Assembly (NCBI GenBank): GCA_017303505.1 | Contig: JAFLCP010000013.1 | Span: forward strand, 2,446-66,445 | Origin: Planctomycetota bacterium | GTDB taxonomy: Bacteria > Planctomycetota > Planctomycetia > Pirellulales > Pirellulaceae | DNA length: 64,000 bases | Reading direction: 5' to 3' | Part shown: positions 1 through 27,312 of the stretch, in pieces | Layout: each line of letters starts with the position of its first letter | Position numbering within the stretch: position 1 is the first letter of the stretch | Made by a program: the position numbers and the translations under genes | The notes under the pieces: model-generated | What the model saw: only the letters and a program-made list of their open reading frames with translations | Database searches by the model: none | Told to the model about the DNA's origin: nothing

Positions 1-351
1 ATGCTGCCAACTCCGGAGCTCTTGGAATGTGTAAAGCCACCAACTCATGGCGTCGGTACGGAACTCGATGAACTCATCGAGAAAACTCGAAGCTTCCTTC
101 AGCGAGTCTGGCTCGGTTGGCTCATCCCTCCGCGAGTCCAGTGCGGCTGTTCAGCAACCCGAGCGTTGATGAATCAACAAGGTCCTCGCGGATGCGTGCA
201 CAATCGCGCTCAACTCGCCAATGAAATCCACGAGCGTTGGCGCAAGCATCTACCACTCGTGCGCTACTTACCACTGTCTCGATGTTTGGTCGGGATCTAT
301 CTCACCCAGGCGATTCGCCGATTTCAGAACAAGGAGACTGCCAATGGCTAG
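1..351 (+). CDS. hypothetical protein, possibly 5'-truncated by the window edge
   Basis: Open frame from position 1 to TAG at 349-351. It overlaps the next gene's start (344) by 8 nt, an operon-like junction. No recognisable motif. Confidence 0.3.
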   Translation: MLPTPELLECVKPPTHGVGTELDELIEKTRSFLQRVWLGWLIPPRVQCGCSATRALMNQQGPRGCVHNRAQLANEIHERWRKHLPLVRYLPLSRCLVGIYLTQAIRRFQNKETANG

Positions 352-2338
352 TTGCATGGAAGCTACACCCAACATGACCCCAGAAGCGATGATGGAACTG
401 ATCGCTCAGTGTCCACCTGGACCTTGGCCGAACGCCTGGGGCACTTGGGACAACACCATCGAAGCCCACCGTCGAGTAGTTGACCAGTACATCGACAACT
501 TGATGCCCAGTCGAGTGACCTATGCGCAAGATCGCGGCATCGTCATCGCTGGGGGTGGTCTCAAGTACTTCCCGAGCGTGTGGGTCAATGTGAGTCTGCT
601 TCGGCACTTCGGCTGTACGCTTCCGATCCAGCTTTGGTACCTCGGCGACACCGAGATGGATCCGTACATGAAACGATTGCTTGAACCACTCGGTGTCGAA
701 TGCATAGATGCCAGAGAGATTGAGAAACAGCACCCCTGCCGGATCCTTTGTGGCTGGGAACTGAAACTCTACGCGACGCTCCACTCACCGTTCGCCCAGG
801 TTCTATTCCTGGACGCAGACAATGGGGTCGTGTGCGATCCAACGTATTTGTTCGACTGCGAAGAGTACAAACGACACGGCGCGGTCTTCTGGCCAGACTA
901 CGCGTGCTGGACTTTGAAACCCGGAGTCTGGCGAGTGTTTGGGATGATGGACATGGCGGAGCCCGAAGTGGCCGAGCATGAGCGAGCCTTCGAGTCCGGG
1001 CAATACCTTATCGACAAACGCCGCTGCGATCGCGAGCTGCGATTGTCGCTTTTCTATGCCGAGCATTCGGACTTCACATTCCAGCACGTCTATGGTGACA
1101 AAGAATGCTTTCACCTTGGTTGGCGACGACTGGGTTCCGACTACGCGATGCCCAGCGCCGGTCCTGGCTGGAATGTTCACACGATCGTTCAGTTCGACTT
1201 CCGAGGTCAGATCGTTTTCCAGCATCGCTGCCAGGACAAATGGCGTTTCGGAGGCAACCGTTTCGTGGACTCATTGGCCAACGAGGAACTTTGTTTCCAA
1301 CTCGTCCGCGATCTGGCAAGCAAATGGAGCGGCAACTTATGGAAGAACGAGGCACCAACCAACATGGAAACCGAAACAATTGAACAACTGATCAACACCC
1401 GAGTTCTTTATCGACGGGTTGGATACGACCAGCGAGTGATCAAACTAGGTCCCGACCGCGAAGTGATCGAAGGGGCCGCCGAGTGCGAACGCCTCTGGCA
1501 CGTGAATCACGTTGATGGTGAGCCGGTACTGACGCTTGCCAGGCTCGATCGACCAACGTGCCACTTACGTCGCGACTACGAAGGGATCTGGCGAGGATCG
1601 TGGCTAGAATACGAACGGATGCCGATCGAAGTCATCCCTGAGGTGCAGTGGAAGCCAACGGTCGATGCGATCGATCCAACCAAGTCGCGGTTGCTCATCA
1701 CCGTAGCCACTGGAGATTCGTTCCAACAGTTGCTTCGGTATACCGGCCCTTTGATGGAAGCCTACGCCAAACGGATCGGAGCCGACTTCGTGGCGATCAC
1801 CACACCAACTCAGGATTGGTGGGGACTAGAAAAGTTCCGAGTGCTGCCGTTTGCTCAATCCTACGAGCGAACTCTTTATGTCGATGCCGATGTGTTCCTC
1901 TCAGAGGAGACACCGGATCTGTTCGACGTGGTTCCCGCCGGTCACGTGTCGATGCACGATGACTGGAGTCAATTGCCAAGCTTTGAGTGGGTCTTTGAAG
2001 AGCGTCGCAACATCCTCCAGTCTCAGGAACTCCCAATGGATAACAGTAGATCGGTTCTCAACACAGGGGTGGTGATGTGCGATCGCAAGCATGCGCACAT
2101 TTGGAAGCCACCAATGCGTCCTTTCTTTCCGACCCATTGTTCCGAGCAGTTCTGGATACAGAACAACGCTAGCGGGCTGCCATTCTTCCAGTTGCCAACC
2201 GAATTCAACACCCAGTATTGGATGCCGAATTTCCGAGACCTAGTGCCGACAGCCAAGGTCGTTCACTTGGCCAATTGTCCGTCGGCGAAGCGGCTCGAGT
2301 TTGCGCGTCAATTCACTTCTTCCCTCGCGACTGCTTAG
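344..2338 (+). CDS. two-domain GT-A fold glycosyltransferase (N-terminal Mnn2/GT71-like mannosyltransferase-type domain, C-terminal GT8-like domain)
   Basis: AAGGAG lies 7 nt upstream of the ATG at 344, so the track start at 221 is rejected. There are two DxD motifs in Rossmann-like context: VLFLDADNGVVCDP and LYVDADVFLSEE. The GIVIAGGGLKYFPSVWVNVSLLRHFGCTLPIQLWY block resembles putative mannosyltransferases. Confidence 0.7.
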   Translation: MASCMEATPNMTPEAMMELIAQCPPGPWPNAWGTWDNTIEAHRRVVDQYIDNLMPSRVTYAQDRGIVIAGGGLKYFPSVWVNVSLLRHFGCTLPIQLWYLGDTEMDPYMKRLLEPLGVECIDAREIEKQHPCRILCGWELKLYATLHSPFAQVLFLDADNGVVCDPTYLFDCEEYKRHGAVFWPDYACWTLKPGVWRVFGMMDMAEPEVAEHERAFESGQYLIDKRRCDRELRLSLFYAEHSDFTFQHVYGDKECFHLGWRRLGSDYAMPSAGPGWNVHTIVQFDFRGQIVFQHRCQDKWRFGGNRFVDSLANEELCFQLVRDLASKWSGNLWKNEAPTNMETETIEQLINTRVLYRRVGYDQRVIKLGPDREVIEGAAECERLWHVNHVDGEPVLTLARLDRPTCHLRRDYEGIWRGSWLEYERMPIEVIPEVQWKPTVDAIDPTKSRLLITVATGDSFQQLLRYTGPLMEAYAKRIGADFVAITTPTQDWWGLEKFRVLPFAQSYERTLYVDADVFLSEETPDLFDVVPAGHVSMHDDWSQLPSFEWVFEERRNILQSQELPMDNSRSVLNTGVVMCDRKHAHIWKPPMRPFFPTHCSEQFWIQNNASGLPFFQLPTEFNTQYWMPNFRDLVPTAKVVHLANCPSAKRLEFARQFTSSLATA

Positions 2339-2357
2339 ACAACGAAAGGAATCCACA

Positions 2358-3062
2358 ATGACGACCTCTGTTTGCTACAAGATCTATGGACACGACTTCC
2401 ACATCGAGCCCGAGAGTGTTCAGTTCGCCAACTGCGTTTTTCACGACGAGTACCGAATTAATGACCTGCGTCCCCACAATGTCCGAACGATCGTAGACGT
2501 CGGTTCGCACGTTGGAAGCTTTACTGTCATGGCCCACCACTATTGGCCCAACGCCAAGATCGTGGCAGTCGAACCCCATCCGCAGAGCTTTGAGCTGATG
2601 GCGAAGAACACGAGTCATATTCCTGAATCGCAGATTCTTCGGATCAACGCAGCGATCTCATCCAAGCCAGGAAAATGCCTGCTGTCGTTCCCTGTGTCGA
2701 ACAGTCGCGTTGCCGATTATGTTCCGGACGTTTGGGAATCGCTCGAGCCTCGATTCAGAGAGTTTGGCATCGAGGTTCCATCGCTGACCGTCGAGCAGTT
2801 CTGGACACAGGTAACGGACTTTGGGATCGACGAAGTCGACCTAATGAAACTCGATTGCGAGGGGGCCGAGTATCTAATCGTTTCTGAACTTGTCGCTTTG
2901 GGGTTGATGGACCGTATCGGCTGGATCCGTGGCGAGTGGCACTGCCGCAAGGACAATCTGCTGCTTGCCAATCTCCTCGGCCAGACGCACGTTTTCAATA
3001 TCGATCCCAACTACCCGCACTCGGTGGGGATGTTTGTAGCGCACCGAATCCTCAAATCGTAG
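2358..3062 (+). CDS. FkbM-family SAM-dependent methyltransferase
   Basis: AGGA RBS precedes the ATG at 2358. SAM-binding block IVDVGSHVGSFTVMAHHYWPNAKIVAVEPHPQSFELMAKN and a later KLDCEGAEY block are typical of the FkbM family. Confidence 0.8.
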   Translation: MTTSVCYKIYGHDFHIEPESVQFANCVFHDEYRINDLRPHNVRTIVDVGSHVGSFTVMAHHYWPNAKIVAVEPHPQSFELMAKNTSHIPESQILRINAAISSKPGKCLLSFPVSNSRVADYVPDVWESLEPRFREFGIEVPSLTVEQFWTQVTDFGIDEVDLMKLDCEGAEYLIVSELVALGLMDRIGWIRGEWHCRKDNLLLANLLGQTHVFNIDPNYPHSVGMFVAHRILKS

Positions 3063-3212
3063 GGTCAATAATCACAAAATCCCGAAATGATTGAGAAACA
3101 TAGTGTGCATCGTGGCGACAACAAACCCACTAACGCATGATGAACCGTCATCGCAACTAGATCAGTTTTCTTGTTTACACGTATAGGCGAGGAGGTTCAG
3201 CCAACATCGCAT

Positions 3213-5591
3213 TCAAGTTGCTGCCCCTTCAATTATGACTGTTACATTTCGCATACTTGACTCGATGGGGAATACCCATCCCTTCAATTCGCCAACGGTC
3301 ATCTTCTCAGGATCGAATCCACAGATGAGCATTATTGGGCAGTTCGTCGTGTAATTTGAAGATTGAGCGATGCCAGTGAGGGAAAGAACGTCCATTCCAC
3401 TCGGAACTGGGTTAGCAACTAAATGTGAATGCCACTCTCCGATGTAGACCATGGACGCGTCTTTCGACGACTCTGCATCAAGTTCCTGTTGGGCGAACTC
3501 GACGTCACGCTCGAATCGAGTTGCAGTTCGAACAGCTTTTGGACCAGGACCAGTTGCTCGAATAACAATCGCTGTGCCACCATCAATTTTTCCAATAAGA
3601 ATTCCTCCGGTTTCAGCAGTTGGAGATAATGCGACTTCGGTAAAGATGAAATCTCTTACGGTACTCGGTAGTGAAATACTACTTATTCTTGCGGGTCCGC
3701 ACGACGGGCATCCAGGCTGAGGTTCGAAGTTAGATTGAACGATGCTAAATGGAGAGTTGAGCTTTCCATCAAATTCTTCCATCGCCCGCAACGTCCACAC
3801 CAAGTGGTTCTTGAGCGCGGAGTTGGATTCCAAGAAGTCGATGGCAGTACGGGCGATATAGCCCGAGACAAAAACAAGATCTACAGCGCTACCTGCGATC
3901 ACTGGACGACCACACTCATGTAACAACGCGTCCTCAGTTCGCTCAGGCACCGATATCCAATCGGGCGTATCTTGGTATGCGATCATTCCCAAGCAAGTCT
4001 TGCACGCGTCAACGCCTGGACGCACAACGAATACTCGCCCCATTTGACCACGCCGCATTGATCTTCCGTATATGACAGGAATACCCATATCAACTGCGAG
4101 ATCGTTGAATCCTGACTCAGCTCCCTCATCGGCGATCGTGCATACAATTAGGTCAACGTCTGCAAACAGCTCACGAACTTCTTCCTGCGAAGGGCTGTTG
4201 ATGTACTTATCGAATACAGTTATCCGCGCATATGGATTTACGTCCCAAATTCTATTGGCAACCACTTCAGTCTTTGGAGAACCACTGTCTCGAAGTCCGC
4301 CGACGTGCCGTGCAACATTCCCTACGTGAAGAATGTCGCCGTCGCAAAGCTTAAATTGGGACACACCGGCTTGAGCAAGCATCTCACCCACCTTCGAACC
4401 AAGTGCTCCCAAACCGACGAGCGCAACTCTCTTTGAAGCAATCTGCGGTGCCACTACTGTCTCATTCCGCTTTCCGATTTCATTTGGAGTCATGCCGTGG
4501 ACCGGTACACATGCAACTCTGGCAGACTCAAAGCGAGCTCGTTTTTGATCGTCTGTTAAGACGGCGGGAAGTCCGTTGGATTTTTCAGCTCCAGCAAGAA
4601 CAACGACGAACAACCACTCTCGTTCTCCAAACCTTCCGGGATAGCAAAGGCCGATGTGGTGCATATTCTTCAATGTGAAATCAACTCCGATCGATTTGCT
4701 AACCATGGACCAAGCATCGCCATTAGGCGCTACTGAAGACAGTACTCCCAACAACCCTTTGCCATCACGAAAAACGCATGGCTCTTCGCCGAGTTCCCAC
4801 CAGTATCCGTTTACTCGCGCAATGTCACCAAAATCAATTGACTTGTGTTGTCGCTGTCTTTCTTGACATTCAACGAATTTTTTAGGTTCCCAGGCGTCGT
4901 TCGAAATCCAGGGGAAGATTGCTTGAAGATCTTCACGAGAATCGACGACCTGATAAACCGAAGTTAAAACTGTTGCAGATGTTGCGATCAAGGGTGGTTC
5001 TTCCTGACTTCGGCCGACGTAGAACCGATGAACATCTTTGACCGCGAAAAACTCACCATTCCCTTTTAGCAGTTCGGAGTAAAAGGTCTTACCCAAGAGT
5101 ATTCCAAAGCCGACCCGATAGAAATGTGCCTGAAGCTCAGTCTCTTTCGAATCTGGTGGCCAGCGGCCGGTAATATGTCCTAGGAACCACGCTTCAGCGC
5201 GGTTAAGAACGTCGATTACGCTGATCGCTTCTCCGCCTTCTGTTGTTCGAGTTTCGTATTGAAACAAACAAAGGGAGCCGGCAGGCATCTGGTGACGATG
5301 ATCGAACATTCTCGCTTTGGGGAAAGATATCGCGGCATTGTTACCATCGAAAGTTGGCATGCTTTCAAGGGGCGTGACGACTGGGAACGCATATGGCGAA
5401 TTACTGGGAAAATCCACCCGCACCGGAAATCTTTTGGCACCACCCTGTGGTCGAATAACAAGTTCCCCATATACGGAAACGTGTCCGTTCAAAAGGCTTC
5501 CTTCGTCGAGGACGAACTTTGGGTAGTTGCGTTTAAGTGCGGCAAGTTCTGCTGCGAACCACTGCGGGTGGCGAGTGTACCAAGCGTGCAT
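3213..5591 (-). CDS. E2(UBC-like)-E1(ThiF/MoeB-like)-JAB/MPN triple-fusion protein (Cap2+Cap3-like ubiquitin-type conjugation/deconjugation enzyme)
   Basis: aa 1-135: prokaryotic E2-like, YAFPVVTP ... HRHQMPAGSLCLF with candidate catalytic Cys108. aa ~386-635: E1 Rossmann fold, VALVGLGALGSKVGEMLAQAGV, plus paired CxxC motifs (DACKTC, GCPSCG). aa ~640-792: JAMM motif, AETGG ... EWHSHLVANPVPSGMD (HxHx7Sx2D). The ATG overlaps the upstream MBL stop (TAATG at 5589-5593). Confidence 0.85.
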   Translation of the reverse strand: MHAWYTRHPQWFAAELAALKRNYPKFVLDEGSLLNGHVSVYGELVIRPQGGAKRFPVRVDFPSNSPYAFPVVTPLESMPTFDGNNAAISFPKARMFDHRHQMPAGSLCLFQYETRTTEGGEAISVIDVLNRAEAWFLGHITGRWPPDSKETELQAHFYRVGFGILLGKTFYSELLKGNGEFFAVKDVHRFYVGRSQEEPPLIATSATVLTSVYQVVDSREDLQAIFPWISNDAWEPKKFVECQERQRQHKSIDFGDIARVNGYWWELGEEPCVFRDGKGLLGVLSSVAPNGDAWSMVSKSIGVDFTLKNMHHIGLCYPGRFGEREWLFVVVLAGAEKSNGLPAVLTDDQKRARFESARVACVPVHGMTPNEIGKRNETVVAPQIASKRVALVGLGALGSKVGEMLAQAGVSQFKLCDGDILHVGNVARHVGGLRDSGSPKTEVVANRIWDVNPYARITVFDKYINSPSQEEVRELFADVDLIVCTIADEGAESGFNDLAVDMGIPVIYGRSMRRGQMGRVFVVRPGVDACKTCLGMIAYQDTPDWISVPERTEDALLHECGRPVIAGSAVDLVFVSGYIARTAIDFLESNSALKNHLVWTLRAMEEFDGKLNSPFSIVQSNFEPQPGCPSCGPARISSISLPSTVRDFIFTEVALSPTAETGGILIGKIDGGTAIVIRATGPGPKAVRTATRFERDVEFAQQELDAESSKDASMVYIGEWHSHLVANPVPSGMDVLSLTGIAQSSNYTTNCPIMLICGFDPEKMTVGELKGWVFPIESSMRNVTVIIEGAAT

Positions 5592-6673
5592 TACTCTAGT
5601 CCCATAGGGCGTTGATCTATGCGTGTAGCGACAGTTGGTGCTGCACTTTGGATCACCCTCGCTGACGACGAGTTCTTCTTTTCTGATTTTTTGTCCTTCT
5701 TCTCGTTTTCGCGGCCGTACTCCTCAACAAGTTTGGTATCCAAGCGAACTTCATAGGTGCCATCGGTGAAAATGTCACAGATGACTGACTCACGATTAGC
5801 TCCGGTATGAATTACGTTATCGTCTCCAACATGATCTTCGTAGAGTTCCATTGCATCATCGTGTGGGTGGTCATGCCGACTTTCTGACTGTTTTGGAGCA
5901 GAAACAATAACGTACTCCGGATCAATTGTTTCAAGTGCTGTCATGTACGGGTCGTCGTCTTTGTCATGCTTGAAGAATGTTCGAGAACCATGGTGGGAAG
6001 CATTCAGAATCTTCGATGGCAATCGATCCTTGTGGTGATCGGTAATGTGATCTTCCCATGCAGTTCGATCAGCGTCACCTGTAAAGAGAATCCAGGTGTC
6101 GTCTTTTCCAATTCGCAAGACCGCGCAATGCTCGTGAATTCGCTTTCGACGTCCAGCAGCATCCTCGCCGGCAATATCCGTCTTCACATAGTCCGCAGGA
6201 GATAGGATGTAAATCTCCGCCTCGCCAAACGCTGTCGCACTGTCGCTTCCACGCATTTCGCTTGCTGCTTTGGAGCCGTGCTTTTTTTTGACTGCTTTTA
6301 TAACCTTCTGAAGCTCGTCGTAGGACGCTTTGTCGTCTTCGCCAGGTACGTGCCCGGATTCCCATACCTCATGGATATCTACTGATTCGTTCAGTTCTGT
6401 GATATCGTCAAGGTGGTCATTGTGCGGATGTGTATTGACGAACAGGTCCAGTCGCCCATCCTGGTCCGTGAGCAGATCTTTCATCAGCCTCGGGACGTTG
6501 ATTCCGTTGTGCCCTTCAGCATCCCGGTTTATGTCAATCAAAATTGTCTTGTAGGTCGTTCCGTCTTTTACCAAAACAACGGACGCATCACCTTGACCAA
6601 CGTAGAGCATACCTACACGAATCAACACGTCTGAATCAGTTGGCCAGAGAACATCTTGAGCAACGTTTGTCAT
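5591..6673 (-). CDS. metallo-beta-lactamase-fold hydrolase (ComEC/Rec2-type MBL), with a long charged C-terminal tail
   Basis: Motifs YVGQGDASVV, NTHPHNDHLDD (HxHxDH), FTGDAD and NASHHGS. GGAG RBS before the ATG at 6673. The last ~45 aa are K/E/S-rich and low-complexity, ending ...RIDQRPMGLE. Confidence 0.85.
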   Translation of the reverse strand: MTNVAQDVLWPTDSDVLIRVGMLYVGQGDASVVLVKDGTTYKTILIDINRDAEGHNGINVPRLMKDLLTDQDGRLDLFVNTHPHNDHLDDITELNESVDIHEVWESGHVPGEDDKASYDELQKVIKAVKKKHGSKAASEMRGSDSATAFGEAEIYILSPADYVKTDIAGEDAAGRRKRIHEHCAVLRIGKDDTWILFTGDADRTAWEDHITDHHKDRLPSKILNASHHGSRTFFKHDKDDDPYMTALETIDPEYVIVSAPKQSESRHDHPHDDAMELYEDHVGDDNVIHTGANRESVICDIFTDGTYEVRLDTKLVEEYGRENEKKDKKSEKKNSSSARVIQSAAPTVATRIDQRPMGLE

Positions 6674-6730
6674 ACTAAACTCCGTTAAATAACTTGAGGC
6701 TTGGAGACGTCAGTCAAACATCTGACATGC

Positions 6731-9700
6731 CTAGGTCAATTTCAATCCATCACGAATTTTCGCAAGTACCGAGTTCATCTCCGTTACAATCTCTGCCGAT
6801 GGCTTTTGTTGTGCATCGCCGAAATCGATTTGGATACTAAAGGTCAGCGGAGCATCACACTTGTTCTTGATATCCAGCAAAGCGGCCACATACTCGCCAA
6901 GTTCTTGCAGCTCAAATGCCTCAAGCTCCGACACAGCCCTGACACCATGCTTTTCGCTGACGCTTCCGAGCCCGAGGCCGGCAGGTCCTTGGTAAGCACC
7001 AGCTGATGTCCCGCCATTGCTACCACCAGAACTATTGACGACCGTGAACTTGGCTTTTGATGCCATCGCGAACTCACATGGCCAATCGTTCGAATCGTCT
7101 GTCAACGACAGAAAACGACCTGTGATTGCCGCGCTAATGGCAGATGCGACATTCTTCCATGGCAGAGTAACTCCGCTTTGATGTGACAATGCTGTGGCAA
7201 TTGCTGCGGCGTTTGTTGTTTCGTTCTTCCATGCAGTTGGCAACGTGGCTGGCAAAAGCGCCGCAGGAGCAATGCTCTCGGGGGGCACTCGAAGCTTCGC
7301 CGCTGGTGTCAGAATCCCTGGTGGTACATCCTCGGCCCAAAGACTTGATGGCCCAGAGAGCAACCAAATGTACCCCGCAGCAACCGCATTTCGGATTGCC
7401 AACTCAATCGCATCTTGGCTTGTCTTAGGAACGTGCACTGATTCTTTGTACCCACCACGGTCAACTTCAACCACGTGCCTTCCGCTGAAGTAGTCGATAA
7501 CGGTTTGCGCCGTGATTTCCTCGCCAGCCCAAAGGCCAGGAAGCACGCTTGGGGCGAGAAGTTTTGGTAGCACTTCTGCAAGTTCGGCATACTCCGGTAA
7601 AACAAGCTCAAGCGATGGGTCAGCCAAAGCTGCATCATCCGGGCGATCTCGCCACCAGGTTCGATATGAACGATCGGGTCGCGTAACCTTCAAAACGAAT
7701 GAACCCTGCAAACAACCCTCGACTAGTGTTTCAACAATCGCCGAAGACTTGAGCATCTTCGGAAGATGCGGGAGTTGAGCAAATGCACCAGCTAGATCTT
7801 TGACGCGTCGACTCTTATCCCCGTCTTGCCACAAATTGTATGGACCATCAGGCAGCAGTGCGTCGGCAGTGATTGCTGTGTCTCGCACTCGAGAGCGTGA
7901 ATCATTCTTGATCGTTTCAAAATGGTTCTGATCGCTAATCGACAACTTAAAGGCATGAGCCTCGTCCTTTTCGGAGACGGTAACGACAATGCAATACGCC
8001 TGACGGATCGCATCGGGAATTCTCTCTCGAGCCTTATCGATGTTGATCTTGAGTGTTTGCATCCGAGCAACGTCGATTGGCCCCTTCTGCTGCTTTTCCT
8101 CGTCTGTGCTTGGGGTCAATTCATCGCGAACTAATTCCCATGCCATGGAATCTTGAATTCGGGCTTCGGCAGCGCTCAGGCCGTCGCGAGATGGTGTGAG
8201 AAGAATGACTGCGTTGCGATGAACTCTCGGTTTATTTGATCCCGAAGTCTCATCCAGAAATCGTTTCGCTTCACTGCTAGGTTTACCGGATTCTGAAGCA
8301 GCACTTGGGGGCATCACAGCGTAATGAAATAGCCCGTCATCCTCAATGTCCTTTGGTTTCGATGGAAGTGTATGGACTTTAACGCCCGCAGCGCTCGCAC
8401 CGGCAGTTAGCGTCTTGAGTTTTCCAACATCCTCGAGCAATCGAGCGCGAACGAGTTCAGTGTCAATCGTCGCGAATGCGGCCGACTGCATTTGAGTGAG
8501 GTTAGGCCGGTTACCCAGTTTCCAATCAGACGGAAGCTCGCCATCTGTTGTCGGAAGATTTTGATCGTCGAGCCAATAACTTTTCCGAGCCCAACGCATT
8601 AGCCCTTTCTCGTATTCGATTCTGTCTGGGCGACATGGACCGACTAACAACATCAAATCGCGAGTCTTTGCGCTGCGGCCAGTTGGCTGTGAGTGCAGGA
8701 AGGTAGCCATTGCAGCTTGTTCGATCTCTCGCAACTTTAGTCCAACCGACTCTTGCTCGACTTGTCGCGCACACTCCAGTTCGGTTTCTAAAATACCGGT
8801 CCAGCGTGTGGCTGCTCCGTCAGACACGATTGTGTCTGCGATTGAAACGAGTTCGCGTGCCGCCTCGGATAAGCCATGTGTCTTGGGTGCGCTAAGAAAG
8901 ACGGCAGGGCCGACTAGGGGGCTTTCGTCCCACTTAACCGCTTCCCGAAGCGCTAGCGCGAACGTTCGCAAAACACCACGAGTCTTTTGAAATCGCTCGA
9001 TCCCCGATGACCATTTGGAGTAAAACACCTCGGTCAATTCAGGATGAAACGGGTAACTCTTCTGGTAACGCTCTTCAGCAAGGGAGCCTTTCTTGGCAGT
9101 CTGTTCGTCTAAAGCATTGATACCCTTGAGCGCTGCGATAATGTGCGTTGGCCAGGTTCCTTTATGCTGAATTGAATCAGGATCAAATAGGCGGCGTCTA
9201 AGCACCTCGGCCACATCGTCTTTTTCAACTGGTTGGACCGCCTCTTCACGCTGCCGCTGGAAGATATCGTTCAAAGCCGAAACGATGTTTTTGCCAAGGG
9301 TGTCGGCCTGATCTTTGGGCTCGCTCGACAACAGTGAAGCCACGATGCAACAACGCTCAACCTTGGCTGCCGCCTGAGTGAGATACTGGAAGAATGACGT
9401 CAGGACATCCAGCCATCCTGGTTCTGCATGCACGCGAACTTTGGCGTAGAGCAGAACTTCATCAAGTAAAATCAACGTTCCCATGCCATCTTTGAGCGGA
9501 ATCGATAGCAAGTCGGACAGGACATTCTCCGCCGGTGGTGTATTTCGTTCTTCCGCCTTTTTGTCAGCGTGAAGAAGCTTCAATCCCTCATCCCCCGCGA
9601 TCTGGTAAGCCAATAAGCTCCAAGGTTCGCGCAATCGCCTTACCGAACCATCCGGCGAACGAACATCGCAGCCGGTTTCTACGTCGACTTTGTCGAAGCA

Positions 9701-10102
9701 AAGTGCGGCCACTCGAGTCTTGGGCGGGTCTTGGCCAATGTGTCCCACAAATTCTGCAACTGCGGGCACTTCGGGCAATTTTGCGGGATCATGAACCAAG
9801 TGCCGCATCGTGATCAACGTATGCGTCTTGCCTCCGCCATAGTTCAATTCAAGCTGCCGAACAGCTTTGTCGTTCTTGCCCGCTAGTCGTAGCACGACGT
9901 CGCGCACGAGCCCACGCAGATTATGCGTAGGGTAGGTAAGCGCAAAAAAATCGTCGGCGTTCTCGTAAATGGGACGTTTCCCATTCTGCATCATCACTTC
10001 GTACAGGTCCGCTGCAAATAAGTGCAGTGGTAAGTCACCCGTCTCTAAATCTTTTCGGATCTTGACTACTTCGTGCCAGGCTTTCCAAGGTTGCTTTGCC
10101 AT
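6731..10102 (-). CDS. DUF499-family P-loop ATPase
   Basis: The N-terminus (PWKAWHEVVKIRKDLETGDLPLHLFAADLYEV) is typical of DUF499. Walker A-like NYGGGKTHTL and Walker B LILLDEVLLY. 1123 aa. Confidence 0.8.
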   Translation of the reverse strand: MAKQPWKAWHEVVKIRKDLETGDLPLHLFAADLYEVMMQNGKRPIYENADDFFALTYPTHNLRGLVRDVVLRLAGKNDKAVRQLELNYGGGKTHTLITMRHLVHDPAKLPEVPAVAEFVGHIGQDPPKTRVAALCFDKVDVETGCDVRSPDGSVRRLREPWSLLAYQIAGDEGLKLLHADKKAEERNTPPAENVLSDLLSIPLKDGMGTLILLDEVLLYAKVRVHAEPGWLDVLTSFFQYLTQAAAKVERCCIVASLLSSEPKDQADTLGKNIVSALNDIFQRQREEAVQPVEKDDVAEVLRRRLFDPDSIQHKGTWPTHIIAALKGINALDEQTAKKGSLAEERYQKSYPFHPELTEVFYSKWSSGIERFQKTRGVLRTFALALREAVKWDESPLVGPAVFLSAPKTHGLSEAARELVSIADTIVSDGAATRWTGILETELECARQVEQESVGLKLREIEQAAMATFLHSQPTGRSAKTRDLMLLVGPCRPDRIEYEKGLMRWARKSYWLDDQNLPTTDGELPSDWKLGNRPNLTQMQSAAFATIDTELVRARLLEDVGKLKTLTAGASAAGVKVHTLPSKPKDIEDDGLFHYAVMPPSAASESGKPSSEAKRFLDETSGSNKPRVHRNAVILLTPSRDGLSAAEARIQDSMAWELVRDELTPSTDEEKQQKGPIDVARMQTLKINIDKARERIPDAIRQAYCIVVTVSEKDEAHAFKLSISDQNHFETIKNDSRSRVRDTAITADALLPDGPYNLWQDGDKSRRVKDLAGAFAQLPHLPKMLKSSAIVETLVEGCLQGSFVLKVTRPDRSYRTWWRDRPDDAALADPSLELVLPEYAELAEVLPKLLAPSVLPGLWAGEEITAQTVIDYFSGRHVVEVDRGGYKESVHVPKTSQDAIELAIRNAVAAGYIWLLSGPSSLWAEDVPPGILTPAAKLRVPPESIAPAALLPATLPTAWKNETTNAAAIATALSHQSGVTLPWKNVASAISAAITGRFLSLTDDSNDWPCEFAMASKAKFTVVNSSGGSNGGTSAGAYQGPAGLGLGSVSEKHGVRAVSELEAFELQELGEYVAALLDIKNKCDAPLTFSIQIDFGDAQQKPSAEIVTEMNSVLAKIRDGLKLT

Positions 10103-10191
10103 TGTTTTTTATCTCTTTCTCTTCGCTCATTTCGTTTGATTTGTATTATTCAGTGTTTGTCAGTTAATAGGAGCAGGATCGATTATCCAAC

Positions 10192-13100
10192 TCACTCATC
10201 CTCTTCGAACTCAAAAGCGAGGAGGGGGCCGCGATCGGCGATTGCCCCCTTAGCTCCGATGTGGTTACTAATGCTCTCCAGCAGCGAACGCTCACCATTC
10301 GTGGATAGCTCAATCAACGATTGCACTACACGTTTGAATAATTCATTTCGACGCAAGCCATGTTCATCGAGAAACTCATCAACCTTTTGAACGTCGCCAC
10401 TCTTCCATAGATGCATAACCCGATGGATGCGATCGATTAGTGGTACCGGGCGACCCTCGGGCGCCTCGATCCCCATACTGCGATGTGTCCGGCGATCCCA
10501 CGCTTTCAACTTCACCTTGTTTCCGCTTCCCGACGGTTCGGAATCGGGATCGTCATCGTCAGGATTGCTTTCGACGTCGTCATCGCCGCCGGAGGTAACA
10601 CCACCTCGAACTAGAATATCCCAGGTTCGTTCCAATTCAGTATCTGTCAGTCCGCAAGCAGTCGCGTAGAGGATGCAGGCGCCTATAGGAGCTTCGTCCA
10701 TACGGAAATCGTAGCGGTGGAGAAGGTAGTAGGCTGTTACTTCATCAAGTCGATCCGCGGCAACCGTTTCCTTTTCCTTTGCTCCAGTTAGCACTTGGCC
10801 GACTACGTAATCGACAACCATCCGGCGGACATGAGTTAGAAACTCGCCTACCGTCATGATTTCGCCATCGACTAAAGCTTTACGAACAACAGGGTGCTTG
10901 CTATACGCTTCCATCGCTGGCCCAGTTGCAGCCCACACAAAGTCGGGCCCGCGAATTCCTGCATCCCAAAATTCACGAAGCTGAGTCGCAATTTTGGTAC
11001 GCATCTCTTCGAGTACTTTGTTGTCCCAACCAGGCTTAGCTGATGTAGGACGTTTCTTGCACACGAGCCAGACTGATGAAGACAATGCAGCTGCTGATTG
11101 TGACCGAGTACGAGCAACTCGTTCAGTTTGTATGGGCCAACTGCCATCAACAACGAAACCGGCACGAATCACAGCCGAAACGAGTGTTTCCCATGCATCA
11201 GGATGCTTATGCGCAAATACCAACACTAAGCGTCCATTGCTATTTAACGCTTGCCCGCATGCAACAAAAGCTTTTGCCATGCCGTTTTCATAAGCGTCTT
11301 TTGAGTCCTTCTTATTTCCGCCGAATCGACTCGCATCATCAACCAATTCACCATCGTTCGTTTCACTGTTCCATTTTGGAGCTAAAGGCTGATCTGAATC
11401 GTAGCTGCCGTCCTGGATAATTCCATGCAGCGCTCTTCGGTGCCAAGTATAGAAGAAATCCATAAGCACCGAATATCCAATCGCATCGTAGTATGGTGGA
11501 TCAGTTATGATTACGTCATACAGCCCTGTCCCAGGTGGGTTTATGGCGGAACCACGCAAAACAGAAGGTGGTTCTGCTTGAAGCGTGGCATTGCATGTAT
11601 GCTCGGTCGCACGACAGATCCATTCCACGGCGCCCCGATAGTTGCCGCTAGTTTCACCCAGCGGATTGCCTTCACAGTAGTCCCATATAAATGGTAACGC
11701 CCAACGGACAAACGTATGCCCTAAGAACTCTCCGCCGGAAGTCCACGTAACACATCGGCTGGAGAAATCTGCGAGGCGACCGACTGCCAGCGTGAGTAAT
11801 CCAACTAGCCCCTCGGTCCATTCAGCGTCGTAACTATACTTTCTGCCTTCAATGGAAATCTCACGGGTGGACAGCACTAATCTTCCAAGTGCAGCCATCT
11901 GCCTCGAGTTATAAAGTTTGTGAAACTCATTGATCCCATAAAGAGAGCACCAGGTATTTCCCTTGGCATCCAGGATCATTGGCTCATGGAGCATGCCAAA
12001 TGGAATTTTTGCAAAAATATTGTCTACCTCGCATTCAATTGATGATGAGGCAGCTAGGTCAATATCTGTCGGCTTTCTGTACTCTTTCCCATTTCCACCA
12101 TCGACTACTACAGCGGTTAGAGTTTGGCCAATACGATCATTCATTCCCTCAATTTGTATGTCGGCCTTGGTCATGAAAACGCCACATGCTGGACATTTAC
12201 CGCCGGACTTTGTTACAGTTCCCTCACCAACACGTTTGTCATGTTCTCTCTTTTGTGCTGCGTTGCCTCCCTTTGCCGGTTCATTTTGATTAATGTTGAA
12301 GCCAACAACTCTTGTTGCTTTGTCAATCGTTAGTTCGAGCTTGATGCGTTTAGTCTCGGATTTAGCCAGCCAAAGTGTTTTGATCAAGGGAAATACGACG
12401 CGGCAATTCTTGCAAGCAACAGTTCTGGCCCAAAGAAAAGCGACAGTTGGCTTAACAACCCATCGAGGGTTACCTTTAATTGCAAGATAATCATCAGAAA
12501 ACTCATCATTTAGAACTTCTATATCTGGCGTGCCGTCTTCCTTTAACTTGAGCAATTTTGTTGGTTGATACTCGTAAGCGACGCTATTCTTCTTCAACGG
12601 CTCAAAATCTGCGTATGTCGGGTAGTATTTTGCTAGGTCGCGACGCGTTTGTTGAAGCACCCACTGCCCCCAAGCGCGAACATGCCAAGCAAGATCTGCC
12701 TGCAATTCGCCTTCATCCTCAGCACCGTCGTTTACGAATCCAAAGGTCTGTTGCGGTTGGCTGCTATCATTCCACTTTTTTCGCTTCTTCAATCGCGCGT
12801 GCAACTTCGCCAGTGCCGCCCGAACCTCCGTCTTGGAATATCCCTTGGCCTTTTTGAAAAAGTCCGTCATGAACTCATCATTGCGCAAGATAAATTCCGG
12901 TAGCGGCCGTGTTTGCCCTGCTAGCTTTTGTGGATACTCAAGAGTGCATTTCAGGATAAACCAAGCCACTGGGTTGATATCCACGGCAGTTGTTTCGCAG
13001 CCCAATCGCATCGCTTCCAGTGGGATTGCTCCACCACCAGCGAATGGATCGAGTACCTTGGGAGCTCGCCCTCCATAAGCCTTACGAATTTCGTCACGAA

Positions 13101-13452
13101 ACCACTGCAGCGTCTCCTCGTTTTCTGTTTCACGGCCCCAGTGCAAAATGCCGCCTTCGGTCTCCTTCTTCACGCGTTCGACGATTTGACCATTGGGCAT
13201 TTTCTTGCGTTCAATCTTCTTGACGACCTTGCCTGCGATCTTCTCGCACAGCTCACGTCGCCCTTCCGCCGTTCCAGGATCAGGCAGCAGCGTCGCAATC
13301 AGCGCCGCGCGACAAGCGGCCAATGGCCGACGTGCGGGCCAGATGTGAAGTGTCGAGATATGACCATGCCGCACGTTCTTCTCATGCACTGAGTCAAGGG
13401 ACGTTGCTTCCAATGGGAAAGCGTGTTCGATCAATCGCGGGAAATCACTCAT
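10192..13452 (-). CDS. DUF1156-family N6-adenine DNA methyltransferase with internal Zn-ribbon
   Basis: DUF1156 signature IEHAFPLEATSLDSVHEKNVRHGHISTLHIWPARRPLAACRA. SAM motif I VLDPFAGGGAIPLEA, motif IV IITDPPYYD, and Zn-ribbon GGKCPACG. Confidence 0.9.
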   Translation of the reverse strand: MSDFPRLIEHAFPLEATSLDSVHEKNVRHGHISTLHIWPARRPLAACRAALIATLLPDPGTAEGRRELCEKIAGKVVKKIERKKMPNGQIVERVKKETEGGILHWGRETENEETLQWFRDEIRKAYGGRAPKVLDPFAGGGAIPLEAMRLGCETTAVDINPVAWFILKCTLEYPQKLAGQTRPLPEFILRNDEFMTDFFKKAKGYSKTEVRAALAKLHARLKKRKKWNDSSQPQQTFGFVNDGAEDEGELQADLAWHVRAWGQWVLQQTRRDLAKYYPTYADFEPLKKNSVAYEYQPTKLLKLKEDGTPDIEVLNDEFSDDYLAIKGNPRWVVKPTVAFLWARTVACKNCRVVFPLIKTLWLAKSETKRIKLELTIDKATRVVGFNINQNEPAKGGNAAQKREHDKRVGEGTVTKSGGKCPACGVFMTKADIQIEGMNDRIGQTLTAVVVDGGNGKEYRKPTDIDLAASSSIECEVDNIFAKIPFGMLHEPMILDAKGNTWCSLYGINEFHKLYNSRQMAALGRLVLSTREISIEGRKYSYDAEWTEGLVGLLTLAVGRLADFSSRCVTWTSGGEFLGHTFVRWALPFIWDYCEGNPLGETSGNYRGAVEWICRATEHTCNATLQAEPPSVLRGSAINPPGTGLYDVIITDPPYYDAIGYSVLMDFFYTWHRRALHGIIQDGSYDSDQPLAPKWNSETNDGELVDDASRFGGNKKDSKDAYENGMAKAFVACGQALNSNGRLVLVFAHKHPDAWETLVSAVIRAGFVVDGSWPIQTERVARTRSQSAAALSSSVWLVCKKRPTSAKPGWDNKVLEEMRTKIATQLREFWDAGIRGPDFVWAATGPAMEAYSKHPVVRKALVDGEIMTVGEFLTHVRRMVVDYVVGQVLTGAKEKETVAADRLDEVTAYYLLHRYDFRMDEAPIGACILYATACGLTDTELERTWDILVRGGVTSGGDDDVESNPDDDDPDSEPSGSGNKVKLKAWDRRTHRSMGIEAPEGRPVPLIDRIHRVMHLWKSGDVQKVDEFLDEHGLRRNELFKRVVQSLIELSTNGERSLLESISNHIGAKGAIADRGPLLAFEFEEDE

Positions 13453-14167
13453 TATCTTTTTCTTCCTTGGAAGGTGCTTCTTCGTTGGCGTTGGGCTTAG
13501 TGGCAGTTACTGCAGGTGCATTCTGCGTTGGCATTGGAAGCTGAAGAAATTGCACCAGTAGTTCACGGGCATAGTGCTTTCCAAACCGATGCATTCGCAG
13601 AGCCGCGAGCACTGCTCCGAAGCCAAGTAGCCCAATCGCACTCCAGTTCGTAGGCACCTTGAAGATCGCGACAATCGCGACGAACACTAGCGAAACGCAC
13701 AGGCCGCGGTTTAGACCATAGTTGCCATTGAAGATGTCGACCCTGGACGCACGGCTCTGGGCAGCAACGGCGGCGTAGATTTGACGCGTAATTCCATACC
13801 ACTCTTTTCTGCCAATTGCAGAAAGATCTGCGGGTACGCTCAAACCTAATTTTGTTTGTAATTGGCTGATAATCGCTGTGCGCTGCGAGTCATGGATCAG
13901 CTTCAATTTGTTCGAGCGAATCCAGTCGCTCGGCATTCCGTACCAATACCACCAAGCCGTTTCCAGGAAACCTCCGAGGGTTTGCACTAAATGTCCCGCA
14001 GCATATGACAAGATCAAGAACACACCCAAGCTGCCGAGTGACATGTCCTTCAACGGCACCGTCTGCGCTATCAGAGTCTCTGCTTGAGCTAATCCGAAAA
14101 TCAGAATCGCACCGGGCATCACGATTCCAGCAAACTCATAAAAGTCGAAATTTTTGTCTGCCTTCAT
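13445..14167 (-). CDS. four-TM membrane protein of unknown function
   Basis: Two N-terminal and two C-terminal hydrophobic helices flank a ~85-aa soluble segment. ATGA overlap with the upstream MBL gene and an 8-nt overlap with the downstream methyltransferase. Confidence 0.6.
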   Translation of the reverse strand: MKADKNFDFYEFAGIVMPGAILIFGLAQAETLIAQTVPLKDMSLGSLGVFLILSYAAGHLVQTLGGFLETAWWYWYGMPSDWIRSNKLKLIHDSQRTAIISQLQTKLGLSVPADLSAIGRKEWYGITRQIYAAVAAQSRASRVDIFNGNYGLNRGLCVSLVFVAIVAIFKVPTNWSAIGLLGFGAVLAALRMHRFGKHYARELLVQFLQLPMPTQNAPAVTATKPNANEEAPSKEEKDNE

Positions 14168-15150
14168 CGATCGTACTCCGAGTCAATGGTTGGTTGGCTG
14201 TATGCAGGGATGTTTACTACGATGTCCCCTTTCCATCGAGTGGACCAAACGTTGTTGCTATACGCTCGGTACTTGTTAGATGCGTCAGTAGATGGTTTCT
14301 TGCCCACAGAGACGATCGTGTATTCCGGCTTCATCGCGGCGACCGCAGGTTGATAGTAACCTGAGTCACGACCATGGTGACTGGCTTTCAAAATGTCACA
14401 TTTCAAATTGCTGCCATAGTAGTCATGAATGGACTCCCAGACTTCAGCCTCGGCATCGCCGCCAAGTATGATCCGCGTGCCATTTGCCACCAGATAGAGA
14501 ACATAGCTGAGGTTATTGTGATTTTTCGATGTGTTAGCCGCTGTATTGGTCTCTATTGTCGGCGCGAGGATATGAATGCCGTCTCCTCCATCAGTCAAAT
14601 CGGCGTTTTGGTTGAAATATGGTCTATGCATGCCCCGATAGTATCGCAACACCGTCACGTCGCCTGGACTGCGCCATTCGCCGTTGCGCAACCGTTGGTA
14701 GCGTCCCCAGTCGATTCGATCGTTGTCTGTTTTGAAGTCTGGGACTTTGGAGTGCCAAGTATCCCAGACGTTGCGGATCGCGATGCCCTCGCGCCACAAT
14801 GCGTTGAGCCCACGCATGTGGTCAAGGTCCGGATGAGATTGGATGTACCGAAAAATCTCTCGACCAGGAAAGTGCTGCTTAAAGTACTCCACCGGATTGG
14901 TCAGTTGAACGTTGTAACCGGCAGTTTTGAGAACACCTTCAATCAACCGACCTGACAGTTTTATACCGAGGGCCTTTGCGAGCGCGAGCTGTGCGTTATC
15001 GTACGACGACGGGGTCTCATCCGCTATTTCTTGTGCGGATGTGTCGTCGAGGCTGTCTCCGTTGTTGATGTCGATCATCGTAATGCGACCACTATCATGC
15101 TCGATGATGGTGCAGTCACCGTGGCCAACATTTAAGAAGTGAATCTTCAT
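14164..15150 (-). CDS. metallo-beta-lactamase-fold hydrolase (second, divergent ComEC-type MBL paralog)
   Basis: Motifs FLNVGHGDCTIIEH, QSHPDLDHMRG (variant HxDxDH), LGGDAE and KASHHGRDSGY. Alignable by eye with the 5591-6673 product. ATGA overlaps on both sides. Confidence 0.85.
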   Translation of the reverse strand: MKIHFLNVGHGDCTIIEHDSGRITMIDINNGDSLDDTSAQEIADETPSSYDNAQLALAKALGIKLSGRLIEGVLKTAGYNVQLTNPVEYFKQHFPGREIFRYIQSHPDLDHMRGLNALWREGIAIRNVWDTWHSKVPDFKTDNDRIDWGRYQRLRNGEWRSPGDVTVLRYYRGMHRPYFNQNADLTDGGDGIHILAPTIETNTAANTSKNHNNLSYVLYLVANGTRIILGGDAEAEVWESIHDYYGSNLKCDILKASHHGRDSGYYQPAVAAMKPEYTIVSVGKKPSTDASNKYRAYSNNVWSTRWKGDIVVNIPAYSQPTIDSEYDR

Positions 15151-18100: not shown

Positions 18101-18719
18101 GGCCAATGAAGGGATTCCCGGCCCGCGTGTCCGATCCTGTGACGACGTTGAAAGGCAGATTGAACAAAGACTGCATTTCGCTTTGCCAGTTACCAATCAG
18201 TCCGGCGGGTGGCACGATCAGCACGCGACGAATCAAGCGTCGGGACAACATCTCGCGAATATACAAGCCCGTCATGATGGTCTTGCCAGCACCGGCGTCG
18301 TCAGCAAGCAGGAACCGCAACCTAGGGTGCTTTAAGAGGTAGTCATAGACAGCAATTCGTTGGTGTGGCAACGGGTCAATACTGGACGTTTCCGTCGCAA
18401 AAGCGGGGTTCGACAGGTGGCCAAAAGACAACCGTTCCCCCTCAACCACGGCGCGGACAATTTCAGGATTCGCCGTGAATTCGACTTTGCCAGCATTGGA
18501 AACCAGGTGTCCACCAAACGTTGTTTCGTGGTCCTCTCCCACAAGCTTCTGAAGTTGTTCCCAGGCAAGCTGCGAAGGCTTAGCATGCCCATTCTCCCAC
18601 CGGCTTACGGTTGGGAAAGACACGTTAAGTCGTTTGGCAAACTCGGTTTGCGTCAATCCTATTCGCGCACGAATCCGCCGAATTTCAGCTGGCAAGTCTT
18701 CAATTTCTGCTAGATCCAC
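15147..18719 (-). CDS. HTH(XRE)-SNF2 helicase-DUF3883 fusion protein
   Basis: GTG start with GGAG 9 nt upstream. N-terminal HTH IGLTQTEFAKRLNVSFPTVSRWENGHAKPS. Helicase motifs LLADDAGAGKT, VVFDEAHKL and QRMGRIHRYGQK. C-terminal DUF3883-like GFDLLAIYP...RRAIEVKGRASTGDVEVSSNEWARAANLRDQYWLYVVY. Confidence 0.9.
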   Translation of the reverse strand: MDLAEIEDLPAEIRRIRARIGLTQTEFAKRLNVSFPTVSRWENGHAKPSQLAWEQLQKLVGEDHETTFGGHLVSNAGKVEFTANPEIVRAVVEGERLSFGHLSNPAFATETSSIDPLPHQRIAVYDYLLKHPRLRFLLADDAGAGKTIMTGLYIREMLSRRLIRRVLIVPPAGLIGNWQSEMQSLFNLPFNVVTGSDTRAGNPFIGPGSDRIVVSVDTLAGPKMFARLQEPDVEPYDLVVFDEAHKLSVNRSSDLRVRKTGRYELAESLAGVRGLDPAWQLNWSPHHLLLLTATPHQGKPYPYYGLWRLLEPDVLSTPEAFENYPVERRQSHFIRRTKEEMVLLSGEPLYPKRISDTLGFRLSQGPFSEQVLYNETTDYMRHVYNRAKLLNRSAARLAMSVMQRRLASSTYALTRSFERRIEKLDELIQRVQDNNLTGEEINLLQRRLASDQEDVFDTKTADEERAIGDREESEVAEGKLLSGVIATSLTDLYVEREQVAVLLQLARRVQADGSESKFEKLQEILNSPRFAGEKLIVFTEHRDTLDYLVGRLGGLGHTGRIAQIHGGMDYKARQEAVERFRRDHTQADGARFMICTDAAAEGINLQFCWIMINFDVPWNPARLEQRMGRIHRYGQKHDPVHIINLVSPDTREGKVIETLLAKLEIIRDSLGSEKVFDSIGRLFEGVSLSTYMEQAVVDGADQAISELSGKLTAEQVQALAAQERMLYGDGGDVKKQLPRLRADLMQEAYRRLLPGYVRQYLENAGPPAGIGMEGDMQKCFSFIPLHPGSIDPILPTLELYNARQRQCLSVVRPQERGAAVWVHPGEPVFEAFRDLVSERIGQDALNGAVFVDPTASKPYLFHVALATVDRAADKDFPDLATPERLECRLIGIRQYEGADTELCPVEHLMLLGPSKGLPATAQRLAAEASKMCELAEAYLTERVSRDIAMGRRNQMLATLAEREQFIRRGFSFQESELAAARNRLSEKARAGNPGALKALTDIRNQQKSLSGRRQLAIDTIHREPELIRPGKVVFVAHALIVPSSDPDDLARHDADVERVAMDVARAFEEAQGAEVKDVSTPELARAAGLTDNPGFDLLAIYPSTDPRGRRAIEVKGRASTGDVEVSSNEWARAANLRDQYWLYVVYDCATPSPKLARVQDPFGNLLASAKGSVLIKRAEVLRAERLGGKE

Positions 18720-26739: not shown

Positions 26740-26765
26740 TACTACACCTATTCCACCGAAATTCT

Positions 26766-27293: not shown

Positions 27294-27312
27294 TGAAAAT
27301 GTCCTCGCATAA

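Follow-up and report, generated by a model that had tools for sequence, protein, structure and literature searches.

6A-MBL systems combine E2, E1, and JAB modules with a metallo-β-lactamase (MBL); van den Berg et al. 2024, a study known to us through the papers that cite it, reportedly validated them as anti-phage in Pseudomonas aeruginosa. The underlying gene organization is found in row 6a of Table 1 in Iyer, Burroughs and Aravind 2006 (PMC1779556), the first of their operon types, a two-gene operon of a triple-module E2+E1+JAB protein and a specialized MBL. In a 2026 review and a 2025 preprint, which cite van den Berg 2024, ‘6A-MBL’ is a validated defense listed among the jumbo-phage defenses of P. 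aeruginosa. A preprint of the Corbett laboratory groups ‘MBL pathways’ with type II CBASS (anti-phage signaling based on cyclic oligonucleotides) as E2-E1 systems whose enzyme is conjugated; the Ledvina preprint makes no mention of MBL operons. Here, we describe a gene pair of this type in a 64,000-nt stretch of a Planctomycetota bacterium contig (JAFLCP010000013.1, positions 2,446 to 66,445; the whole stretch is referred to as the window). It encodes an MBL-fold protein (MBL1) and, directly downstream, a single E2-E1-JAB chain (the fusion). We consider it probable (roughly 0.6) that the two genes form an anti-phage module of the 6A-MBL type that works in the manner of type II CBASS, with a nuclease-type enzyme in place of the CD-NTase (a nucleotidyltransferase similar to cGAS and DncV) and with the MBL conjugated through its Gly tail.

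Identity and conservation of the gene pair

As listed for type 6a and described for 6A-MBL, the locus consists of an MBL gene linked to an adjacent gene for one protein that carries E2, E1, and JAB in this order; no ubiquitin-like protein (Ubl) or nucleotidyltransferase was found in the operon, and the pair lies in a defense island. For both proteins, the 6A-MBL models of NCBIfam were the best-scoring families, with 134.6 bits (cut-off 320) for the fusion against NF058523 (‘anti-phage 6A-MBL system cap2_3 protein’) and 59.1 bits (cut-off 220) for MBL1 against NF058524 (‘6A-MBL system MBL-fold protein’). Because both scores fall well below the equivalog cut-offs, the pair is, judged by its sequence, a diverged planctomycete relative of 6A-MBL and not an equivalog of the modeled (presumably Pseudomonas-type) proteins. 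It also differs from 6A-MBL in that NF058523 (665 positions) aligned to residues 347-756 of the 792-aa fusion only, the E2 and wing half having diverged. A further difference is a small transmembrane (TM) protein that is a frequent third gene in the clade of the window pair; no description of such a third gene of 6A-MBL-type loci was found in the accessible literature. The initial annotation had presented the locus as uncharacterized and highly novel. The gene pair is real and not new, its class having been listed as type 6a in 2006, cited as validated in the sources above, and modeled in NCBIfam. An exact-sequence look-up of the fusion returned no identical record; homologs carry the database names ‘ThiF family adenylyltransferase’ (fusion) and ‘competence protein ComEC’ (MBL).

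On the minus strand, we verified the pair as the initial annotation had described it, with a 360-aa and a 792-aa frame overlapping by one nucleotide (Table 1). At the junction (...CCT ATG GGA CTA GAG TAATG CAC...), the TAA of MBL1 and the ATG of the fusion share base 5591, an overlap that couples translation of MBL1 to that of the fusion gene. The gaps reported for the upstream genes were likewise correct in size, with 57 nt between MBL1 and HmaC (6674-6730) and 89 nt between HmaC and HmaB (10103-10191); the assignment of these genes to the operon system of the pair did not hold, as HmaC and HmaB belong to a separate Hma system (see below). In agreement with the annotated absence of a Ubl gene and a CD-NTase, no CD-NTase was found among the operon and neighbor proteins scanned with PADLOC, Pfam, and NCBIfam models, no β-grasp (Ubl) gene was found among the scanned neighbors, and the MBL1 model contains no β-grasp domain. 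Across 27 loci, no small conserved open reading frame (ORF) that could be a Ubl accompanies the pair. The 150 nt 3′ of the fusion (3063-3212) hold only small ORFs, as annotated, with the limit moved from 30 to 31 aa for frames contained entirely in the interval, which a convergent FkbM-type methyltransferase gene (Pfam) bounds on its far side. Promoter and terminator scans gave counts at or below the shuffled expectation.

Scanning a single genome for each GTDB species for homologs gave 80 loci, 25 of which contain full-length triple-module homologs (27–89% identity). Their records are named Planctomycetota, Armatimonadota, Bacteroidota, Myxococcota, Acidobacteriota, Candidatus Nealsonbacteria, and a Citrobacter metagenome-assembled genome (MAG). 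An MBL1 homolog (40–93% identity) lies directly upstream on the same strand in all 25, and the two genes overlap or are ≤10 nt apart in nearly all of them. The tight coupling to the MBL gene thereby withstood the neighborhood survey set beforehand as its check, and the linkage of the two genes, which are always found together, is obligatory. Full-length fusion homologs also occur on Paenibacillus and Hymenobacter plasmids; on the Paenibacillus plasmid, the one examined, the MBL gene again lies directly upstream. In L026-L080, only the E1/JAB part of the fusion was matched, with a weak MBL match nearby in L037, L066, and L072 only. None of the 80 loci is a Pseudomonas-type 6A-MBL example suited for direct comparison.

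Active sites and the C-terminal tail of MBL1

Within the fusion, Pfam identified ThiF (residues 383-590, 7e-27) and Prok-JAB (residues 652-756, 5e-8). PADLOC models for CBASS E1-E2 and JAB proteins matched as well (best 2e-31; JAB models to 7e-25), as did the NCBIfam Cap3 model for the JAB domain (1e-11), and a PDB profile search of the E1 region matched MoeB, UBA5, Cap2, and ThiF. An AlphaFold2 model built with 23 homologs reached a predicted local distance difference test (pLDDT) value of 80. Its top PDB match in Foldseek was Cap2 of Enterobacter cloacae (7to3_A, E 8e-23, 668 columns against a 568-residue target), followed by UBA5, BubCD, ATG7, MoeB, and ThiF. The wing between E2 and E1 had no sequence-family match in Pfam.

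Residue conservation in the fusion was judged on 23 homologs with 41–89% identity. Invariant residues comprise H100 and C108 within RHQMPxGxLCLF of the E2, with His100 situated in RHQMPAGSLCLF; G393xG395xxG398, R428, K440, D488, C530xxC533, C560, and C628xxC631 of the E1; and E660, H721xH723, and D734 of the JAB. The GxGxxG motif, R428, K440, and D488 appear to correspond to Gly41, Arg73, Lys86, and Asp130 of MoeB (residues named in PMC12355090), as matched by motif and not by structural alignment. Loop 554-570, which bears C560, has pLDDT <50, in keeping with the flexibility of a mobile crossover loop. For the N-terminal region, the model predicts a helix, a β-meander, the Cys loop, and another helix; this topology, the whole-chain Cap2 fold match, and the invariant His and Cys are what the putative E2 assignment rests on. 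The annotated combination of an E2, a ThiF/MoeB-type E1 (GLGALG, two CxxC pairs), and a JAMM peptidase in one chain was thus confirmed by motifs and fold, and the catalytic residues of all three modules proved invariant; a lack of conservation of those in E2 and E1 had been set beforehand as a possible point of refutation.

MBL1 gave no Pfam match above threshold. In addition to NF058524, it showed weak PADLOC/NCBIfam matches to the LmuA-associated, RTasMBL, and Avs1a families. The AlphaFold2 model (pLDDT 85, predicted template modeling score 0.85) is globular over residues 1-324, with a lower-confidence internal loop at about residues 160-180. Its best PDB fold match in Foldseek was the β-lactamase-like domain of ComEC (9ic4, E 1e-17, TMt 0.82), followed by phosphorylcholine esterase and then by RNase J and CPSF73-type nucleases. 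Besides the HxHxDH motif, the residues H180, D200, H227/H228, and H269 are invariant in 29 homologs. We predict MBL1, the active site of which is intact, to be a binuclear metallo-phosphodiesterase of the ComEC type. It shares its metal-ligand set with the MBL domain of ComEC/Rec2, from which it differs as a stand-alone soluble protein without channel or OB domains and with a unique C-terminal tail.

This tail, disordered in the model, consists in the alignment of a low-complexity linker followed by the conserved motif [ST][RK][IL]D-x-[RKQ]-PMG. The motif Gly is the last residue in 12 of the 25 related loci; the others carry 2-4 variable residues past it, which are LE in the window and LK, NQ, RQ, SRSR, RTS, DR, SK, KR, TR, or AAHE elsewhere. 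A wider survey of the MBL1 family covered 120 cluster representatives. A P-x-G motif was present in 74 of them, with extensions of 0 (8 representatives), 1 (8), 2 (36), 3 (18), 4 (3), or 6 (1) residues, while other subfamilies terminate directly in ...PFA, ...RKYG, ...GRYA, ...GRWG, or ...RSA. A conserved Gly or Ala lies at the end or within six residues of it in 114 of the 120, the remaining six being mostly truncated or fused.

A Gly/Ala-ended tail is a specific feature of MBLs with an E2-E1 partner. A second MBL of the window (MBL2) and its homologs, which lack such a partner, have a conserved ...SEYDR end with neither linker nor tail; these TM-paired paralogs occur with Hma, with type I restriction-modification (R-M), or stand-alone. 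In locus L084, an MBL beside a JAB-less Cap2-like protein terminates directly in ...KKFG.

Two irregular tails were also observed. One MBL1 homolog (P0177, 465 aa) carries, in place of the Gly-ended tail, a C-terminal PF18134 domain, which we take to be the AGS-C sensor domain of SMODS nucleotidyltransferases and cyclases. In a Planctomycetales MAG (L008, 2099-3493), the MBL ORF continues in frame past ...GRPVG into the E2 N-terminus (MAMSWITLHPQWY...) before the frame breaks. This read-through could mean that the MBL and E2-E1-JAB are naturally fused, or else reflect a frameshift or an error of assembly; the upstream TM gene of the same locus is likewise split.

Table 1 Features of the gene pair and of its neighbors in the window
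Feature	Position	Strand	Basis or remark
MBL1 ORF, 360 aa	5591..6673	minus	ORF call; ComEC-type MBL-fold phosphodiesterase (putative DNase)
E2-E1-JAB fusion ORF, 792 aa	3213..5591	minus	ORF call; Cap2-Cap3-like triple-module protein
TAATG stop/start overlap MBL1/fusion	5589..5593	minus	Sequence; one base shared, 5591
GGAG, possible ribosome-binding site	6680..6683	minus	6 nt 5′ of MBL1 ATG; consensus match only
HxHxDH metal-binding motif H82-P-H84-N-D86-H87	6413..6430	minus	Invariant in 29 homologs
Disordered C-terminal tail, MBL1 residues 325-360 (36 aa)	5594..5701	minus	pLDDT <50; ends ...ATRIDQRPMG-LE
P356-M357-G358 codons, ‘PMG’ tail end	5600..5608	minus	Proposed adenylation/conjugation site after removal of L359, E360
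L359-E360 codons	5594-5599	minus	Two residues past Gly358
E2 (UBC-like) domain, ~residues 1-160 (putative)	5112..5591	minus	Invariant H100/C108, model topology, whole-chain Cap2 match
Candidate catalytic Cys108 codon	5268-5270	minus	Invariant in homologs
E2-E1 linker or ‘wing’, ~residues 161-346	4554..5111	minus	Folded α/β in AlphaFold2 model; inside Cap2-match span
E1 adenylation domain, ~residues 347-632	3696..4553	minus	Pfam ThiF; GLGALG, R428, K440, D488, two CxxC pairs, Cys560
Crossover-loop Cys560 codon	3912-3914	minus	Within HECGRP
JAB/JAMM metallopeptidase domain, ~residues 638-792	3216..3680	minus	Pfam Prok-JAB, PADLOC, NCBIfam Cap3
JAB motif H721-S-H723-x7-S731-x2-D734	3390-3431	minus	Catalytic E660 lies upstream
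HmaC (DUF499 ATPase)	6731-10102	minus	PADLOC 2e-69
HmaB (DUF1156 methylase)	10192-13452	minus	PADLOC 2e-109
240-aa 4-TM protein	13445-14167	minus	Wedged between HmaA and HmaB; translationally coupled to MBL2
MBL2	14164-15150	minus	Second MBL in window
HmaA (helix-turn-helix + SNF2 helicase + NOV_C)	15147-18719	minus	PADLOC 2.5e-150
N6 DNA methylase	21980-23053	minus	Second defense-type block
CARF-like protein	23050-23982	minus	PADLOC 2e-102
ORC-CDC6-like ATPase	23972-25849	minus	Pfam 3.5e-136
PRTase-CE	25846-26739	minus	Second defense-type block
Two dCTP-deaminase-like genes	26766-27927	minus	Second defense-type block

A proposed conjugation mechanism and its rivals

E1 enzymes, including Cap2 acting on CD-NTases, need a flexible tail that ends in Gly or Ala, and the JAB peptidases of Bil and Bub, according to the Corbett-laboratory preprint, remove a short masking extension from Ubl precursors. 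The Gly/Ala-ended tail of MBL1 and its relatives fits the need of the E1, and the short extension fits trimming by a JAB, which in bioinformatic terms supports the MBL as the candidate substrate of the machinery encoded next to it. That the MBL itself is conjugated or primed had been suggested in the initial annotation; the conserved, disordered, Gly-ended tail, absent from partnerless MBL paralogs, speaks for this suggestion, which also matches the working view of the field. In the proposed order of events, the JAB would trim L359-E360 past Gly358, the E1 would adenylate the exposed Gly358 carboxylate, and the MBL would be carried as a thioester on the crossover-loop Cys560 and then on Cys108 of the E2, before an isopeptide bond links it to a lysine of its target, which could be a further MBL copy or a protein of phage or host origin. 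Conjugation would prime, localize, or activate the hydrolase, and the same JAB would reverse the linkage and thereby restrain toxicity. The activated MBL would most likely degrade DNA and halt phage replication. A nuclease role for MBL1 is supported by the ComEC fold match and by the ComEC-like MBLs of Hachiman, Avs, Lamassu, and DRT systems, DNase proenzymes that are unmasked when a partner protease, the gene of which lies just downstream, acts on them (PMC12799240).

A more specific picture has the nuclease-type enzyme serving as the ‘ubiquitin’: unmasked at Gly358 by the JAB, it would be tethered by E1-E2 to a target or into chains during infection only, with a TM partner in most relatives. 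We put this forward tentatively, at slightly less than even odds. If true, the MBL would be the second non-Ubl E1 substrate after CD-NTases and the first with the killing enzyme itself as conjugated cargo. The locus alone changes little, its class being known and named. It does provide a compact model for what the E2-E1-JAB machinery of 6A-MBL acts on, with three handles: the tail with its PMG and extension, the difference from MBL paralogs that have no tail, and the recurrent TM partner.

The pair resembles type II CBASS in its Cap2-like E2-wing-E1 organization (best fold 7to3), its Cap3-like JAB, and the retention of the catalytic Cys108, Cys560, and JAMM residues. In both, the partner is a large enzyme without a β-grasp fold, the flexible C-terminal tail of which terminates in Gly or Ala. 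In contrast to type II CBASS, the pair has neither a CD-NTase nor a cyclic-nucleotide receptor, its partner enzyme being an MBL hydrolase; the Cap2 and Cap3 equivalents are fused in one chain; and in most members 1-6 further residues hide the terminal Gly. With Bil and Bub, it has in common the use of E1, E2, and JAB chemistry in phage defense, and the JAB of these systems also matures the C-terminus of a precursor. Bil and Bub, however, encode a true β-grasp Ubl, of which none was found with the pair, and their E1 and E2 are separate proteins in a different architecture.

Several points weigh against conjugation of the MBL as the mode of action. At the sequence level, the E2 domain is the weak point: it had no Pfam match even at E ≤ 5, its best hit in a PDB sequence search was an E2, UBE2L6, at a non-significant E of 0.23, and hhalign against an approximate UBE2D2 sequence aligned only an FPxxYPFxPP-like motif (2% probability). 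Fold similarity is the sole guide to the substrate of MBL1, which may be DNA, RNA, or a small phosphodiester, and no demonstration of the chemistry of the 6A-MBL MBL family was found in the accessible literature, which does not include the primary validation paper. Transferring the phenotype from the Pseudomonas system would be an extrapolation, with both NCBIfam scores far under the cut-offs. Moreover, the Gly is already the last residue in about half of the loci, and therefore trimming is not the sole role of the JAB. Instead of acting as the effector, the MBL could make a signal, and the real effector could be the small TM protein carried by most related loci.

The main rival to MBL conjugation holds that the JAB activates an MBL proenzyme by cleavage, while E2-E1 modifies something else or acts as a sensor or scaffold. 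It draws on the proteolytic unmasking of ComEC-like defense nucleases mentioned above (PMC12799240), on the weak MBL1 matches, which fall in the LmuA-associated, RTasMBL, and Avs1a families, on the lower-confidence MBL1 loop at about residues 160-180, and on the short variable extension past the conserved Gly in most members. Yet the catalytic residues of E1 and E2 are conserved as strictly as those of the JAB, and a conserved Gly or Ala at or beside the extreme C-terminus is the signature of an E1 substrate and not of an internal cleavage site. These two observations argue against cleavage alone, and the JAB-less Cap2-like protein of L084 still pairs with a Gly-ended MBL; we consider this rival unlikely. 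The MBL-protease pairs of Hachiman, Avs1, Lamassu, and DRT (HamM-type proenzymes) are similar to the window pair in placing a nuclease under post-translational control. They differ from it in the peptidase, which in the window pair is a JAMM enzyme accompanied by E1 and E2 and not a trypsin-like protease, the JAB being the only peptidase domain found, and in the conserved element, which is a C-terminal Gly and not internal cleavage-site insertions.

Only a small chance is given to the possibility that the fusion conjugates another protein, whether an unlinked Ubl, a phage protein, or a membrane partner, with the MBL as an independent effector or as the maker of a signal that controls a membrane effector. 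At least 18 of 27 loci have a small TM protein next to the pair, reminiscent of CBASS operons with a TM effector, MBL+TM pairs occur alone and in other defense operons, and the phosphorylcholine esterase fold match allows substrates other than nucleic acids. Nevertheless, no Ubl or small conserved gene was found with the pair, the pair exists without an adjacent TM gene in the window, in the 89%-identical L001, and in several other loci, and the Gly/Ala-ended tail is confined to MBLs with an E2-E1 partner. The initial annotation had also considered another operon protein as the substrate, which would make the locus a seven-gene Hma-MBL-ubiquitin super-operon with E2-E1-JAB as a regulator of Hma proteins. 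Although the seven genes share one strand with overlaps or gaps ≤89 nt, the minus-strand scan gave no terminator-like site between HmaC and MBL1, and the gene order is kept in L002, this is very improbable: Hma adjoins the pair in only 2 of 25 loci, on the opposite strand in one of them, and missing beside the L001 pair, and HmaA-MBL2-TM-HmaB-HmaC occurs without E2-E1-JAB in Candidatus Accumulibacter. A metabolic ThiF/MoeB-type enzyme for sulfur transfer or a cofactor, with the hydrolase as a chance neighbor, is suggested by the database names of the homologs and can be regarded as effectively excluded, given the lack of a ThiS/MoaD partner, the fusion of E2 and JAB to the E1, the best fold match to Cap2, the defense island context (Hma, ORC-CDC6-like/PRTase-CE, CARF-like, and methylase genes), and scores far under the cut-offs of the ThiF/MoeB equivalog models (NCBIfam).

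The small membrane partner and the defense island

The small TM protein found directly beside the pair and on the same strand in the loci counted above has 165-262 aa and 2-4 predicted TM helices. One family, related to the 240-aa ORF of the window, is represented in L004, L005, L006, L008, L011, L013, L014, L024 (about 2.2 kb upstream of the pair), L025, and the Paenibacillus plasmid, and another, starting with ‘Y(F)xRARLFPALITSIP’, in L003, L007, L012, L015, and L018-L021. A search with the small 3-4-TM family yielded 710 homologs, no Pfam or NCBIfam family, and a weak PADLOC Csx27 match. In all six genomic contexts looked up, a ComEC-like MBL gene adjoins the small TM gene. The two occur alone (L086, L087), with type I R-M (L085), with Hma (L082, L083), and in Cap2-type E2-E1 operons (L084, many of L003-L025). 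Judging from these arrangements, the ComEC-like MBL and the small TM protein are a reusable module that looks like a mobile two-gene effector unit, and Hma, type I R-M, and Cap2-type systems reuse ComEC-like MBL genes as a module whether the TM gene is present or not. In the three-gene versions, the TM protein may be the effector or the conjugation target.

One such three-gene operon (L084, 6001-9562) encodes the TM protein, the MBL ending in ...KKFG, and a 608-aa Cap2-like protein (Cap2_linker + ThiF) without a fused JAB; no obvious JAB gene lies nearby. As homologs of the TM gene of the window flank the pair elsewhere, that gene was considered as a displaced third 6A-MBL gene. For the window, this was ruled out by the order HmaA-MBL-TM-HmaB-HmaC, which is kept in Candidatus Accumulibacter.

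Upstream of the pair, the minus strand carries a five-gene Hma variant (6731-18719) with 4- and 8-nt overlaps around two inserted genes, MBL2 and the TM gene; PADLOC matches within it were confined to the HmaA, HmaB, and HmaC models. The same order, HmaA-MBL2-TM-HmaB-HmaC, is present in L002 and in Candidatus Accumulibacter (L083), where no E2-E1-JAB gene accompanies it. The two pairs with Hma beside them are those of L002, a close relative with the same order, and L023, in which Hma is on the opposite strand. Hma as a part of the system of the pair, as its tight spacing had suggested, was ruled out on these grounds. Because it adjoins so few pairs and exists as the same variant without one, Hma is best viewed as a separate neighboring system within the defense island. 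The pair lies directly downstream of Hma, and co-transcription may occur in the window genome because of the missing terminator-like site between HmaC and MBL1.

The defense island spans roughly 3-28 kb of the window. It includes a second defense-type block on the minus strand (21980-27927; Table 1). Elsewhere in the window, the large ORFs that were scanned had non-defense Pfam matches or none (Ser/Thr kinases, BlaR1-type M56 peptidase, PQQ propeller). On the plus strand (221-3062), a mannosyltransferase-like gene (705 aa) and the FkbM-type methyltransferase gene (253 aa) run toward the end of the defense operon in convergent orientation and mark the boundary of the island at ~3.1 kb.

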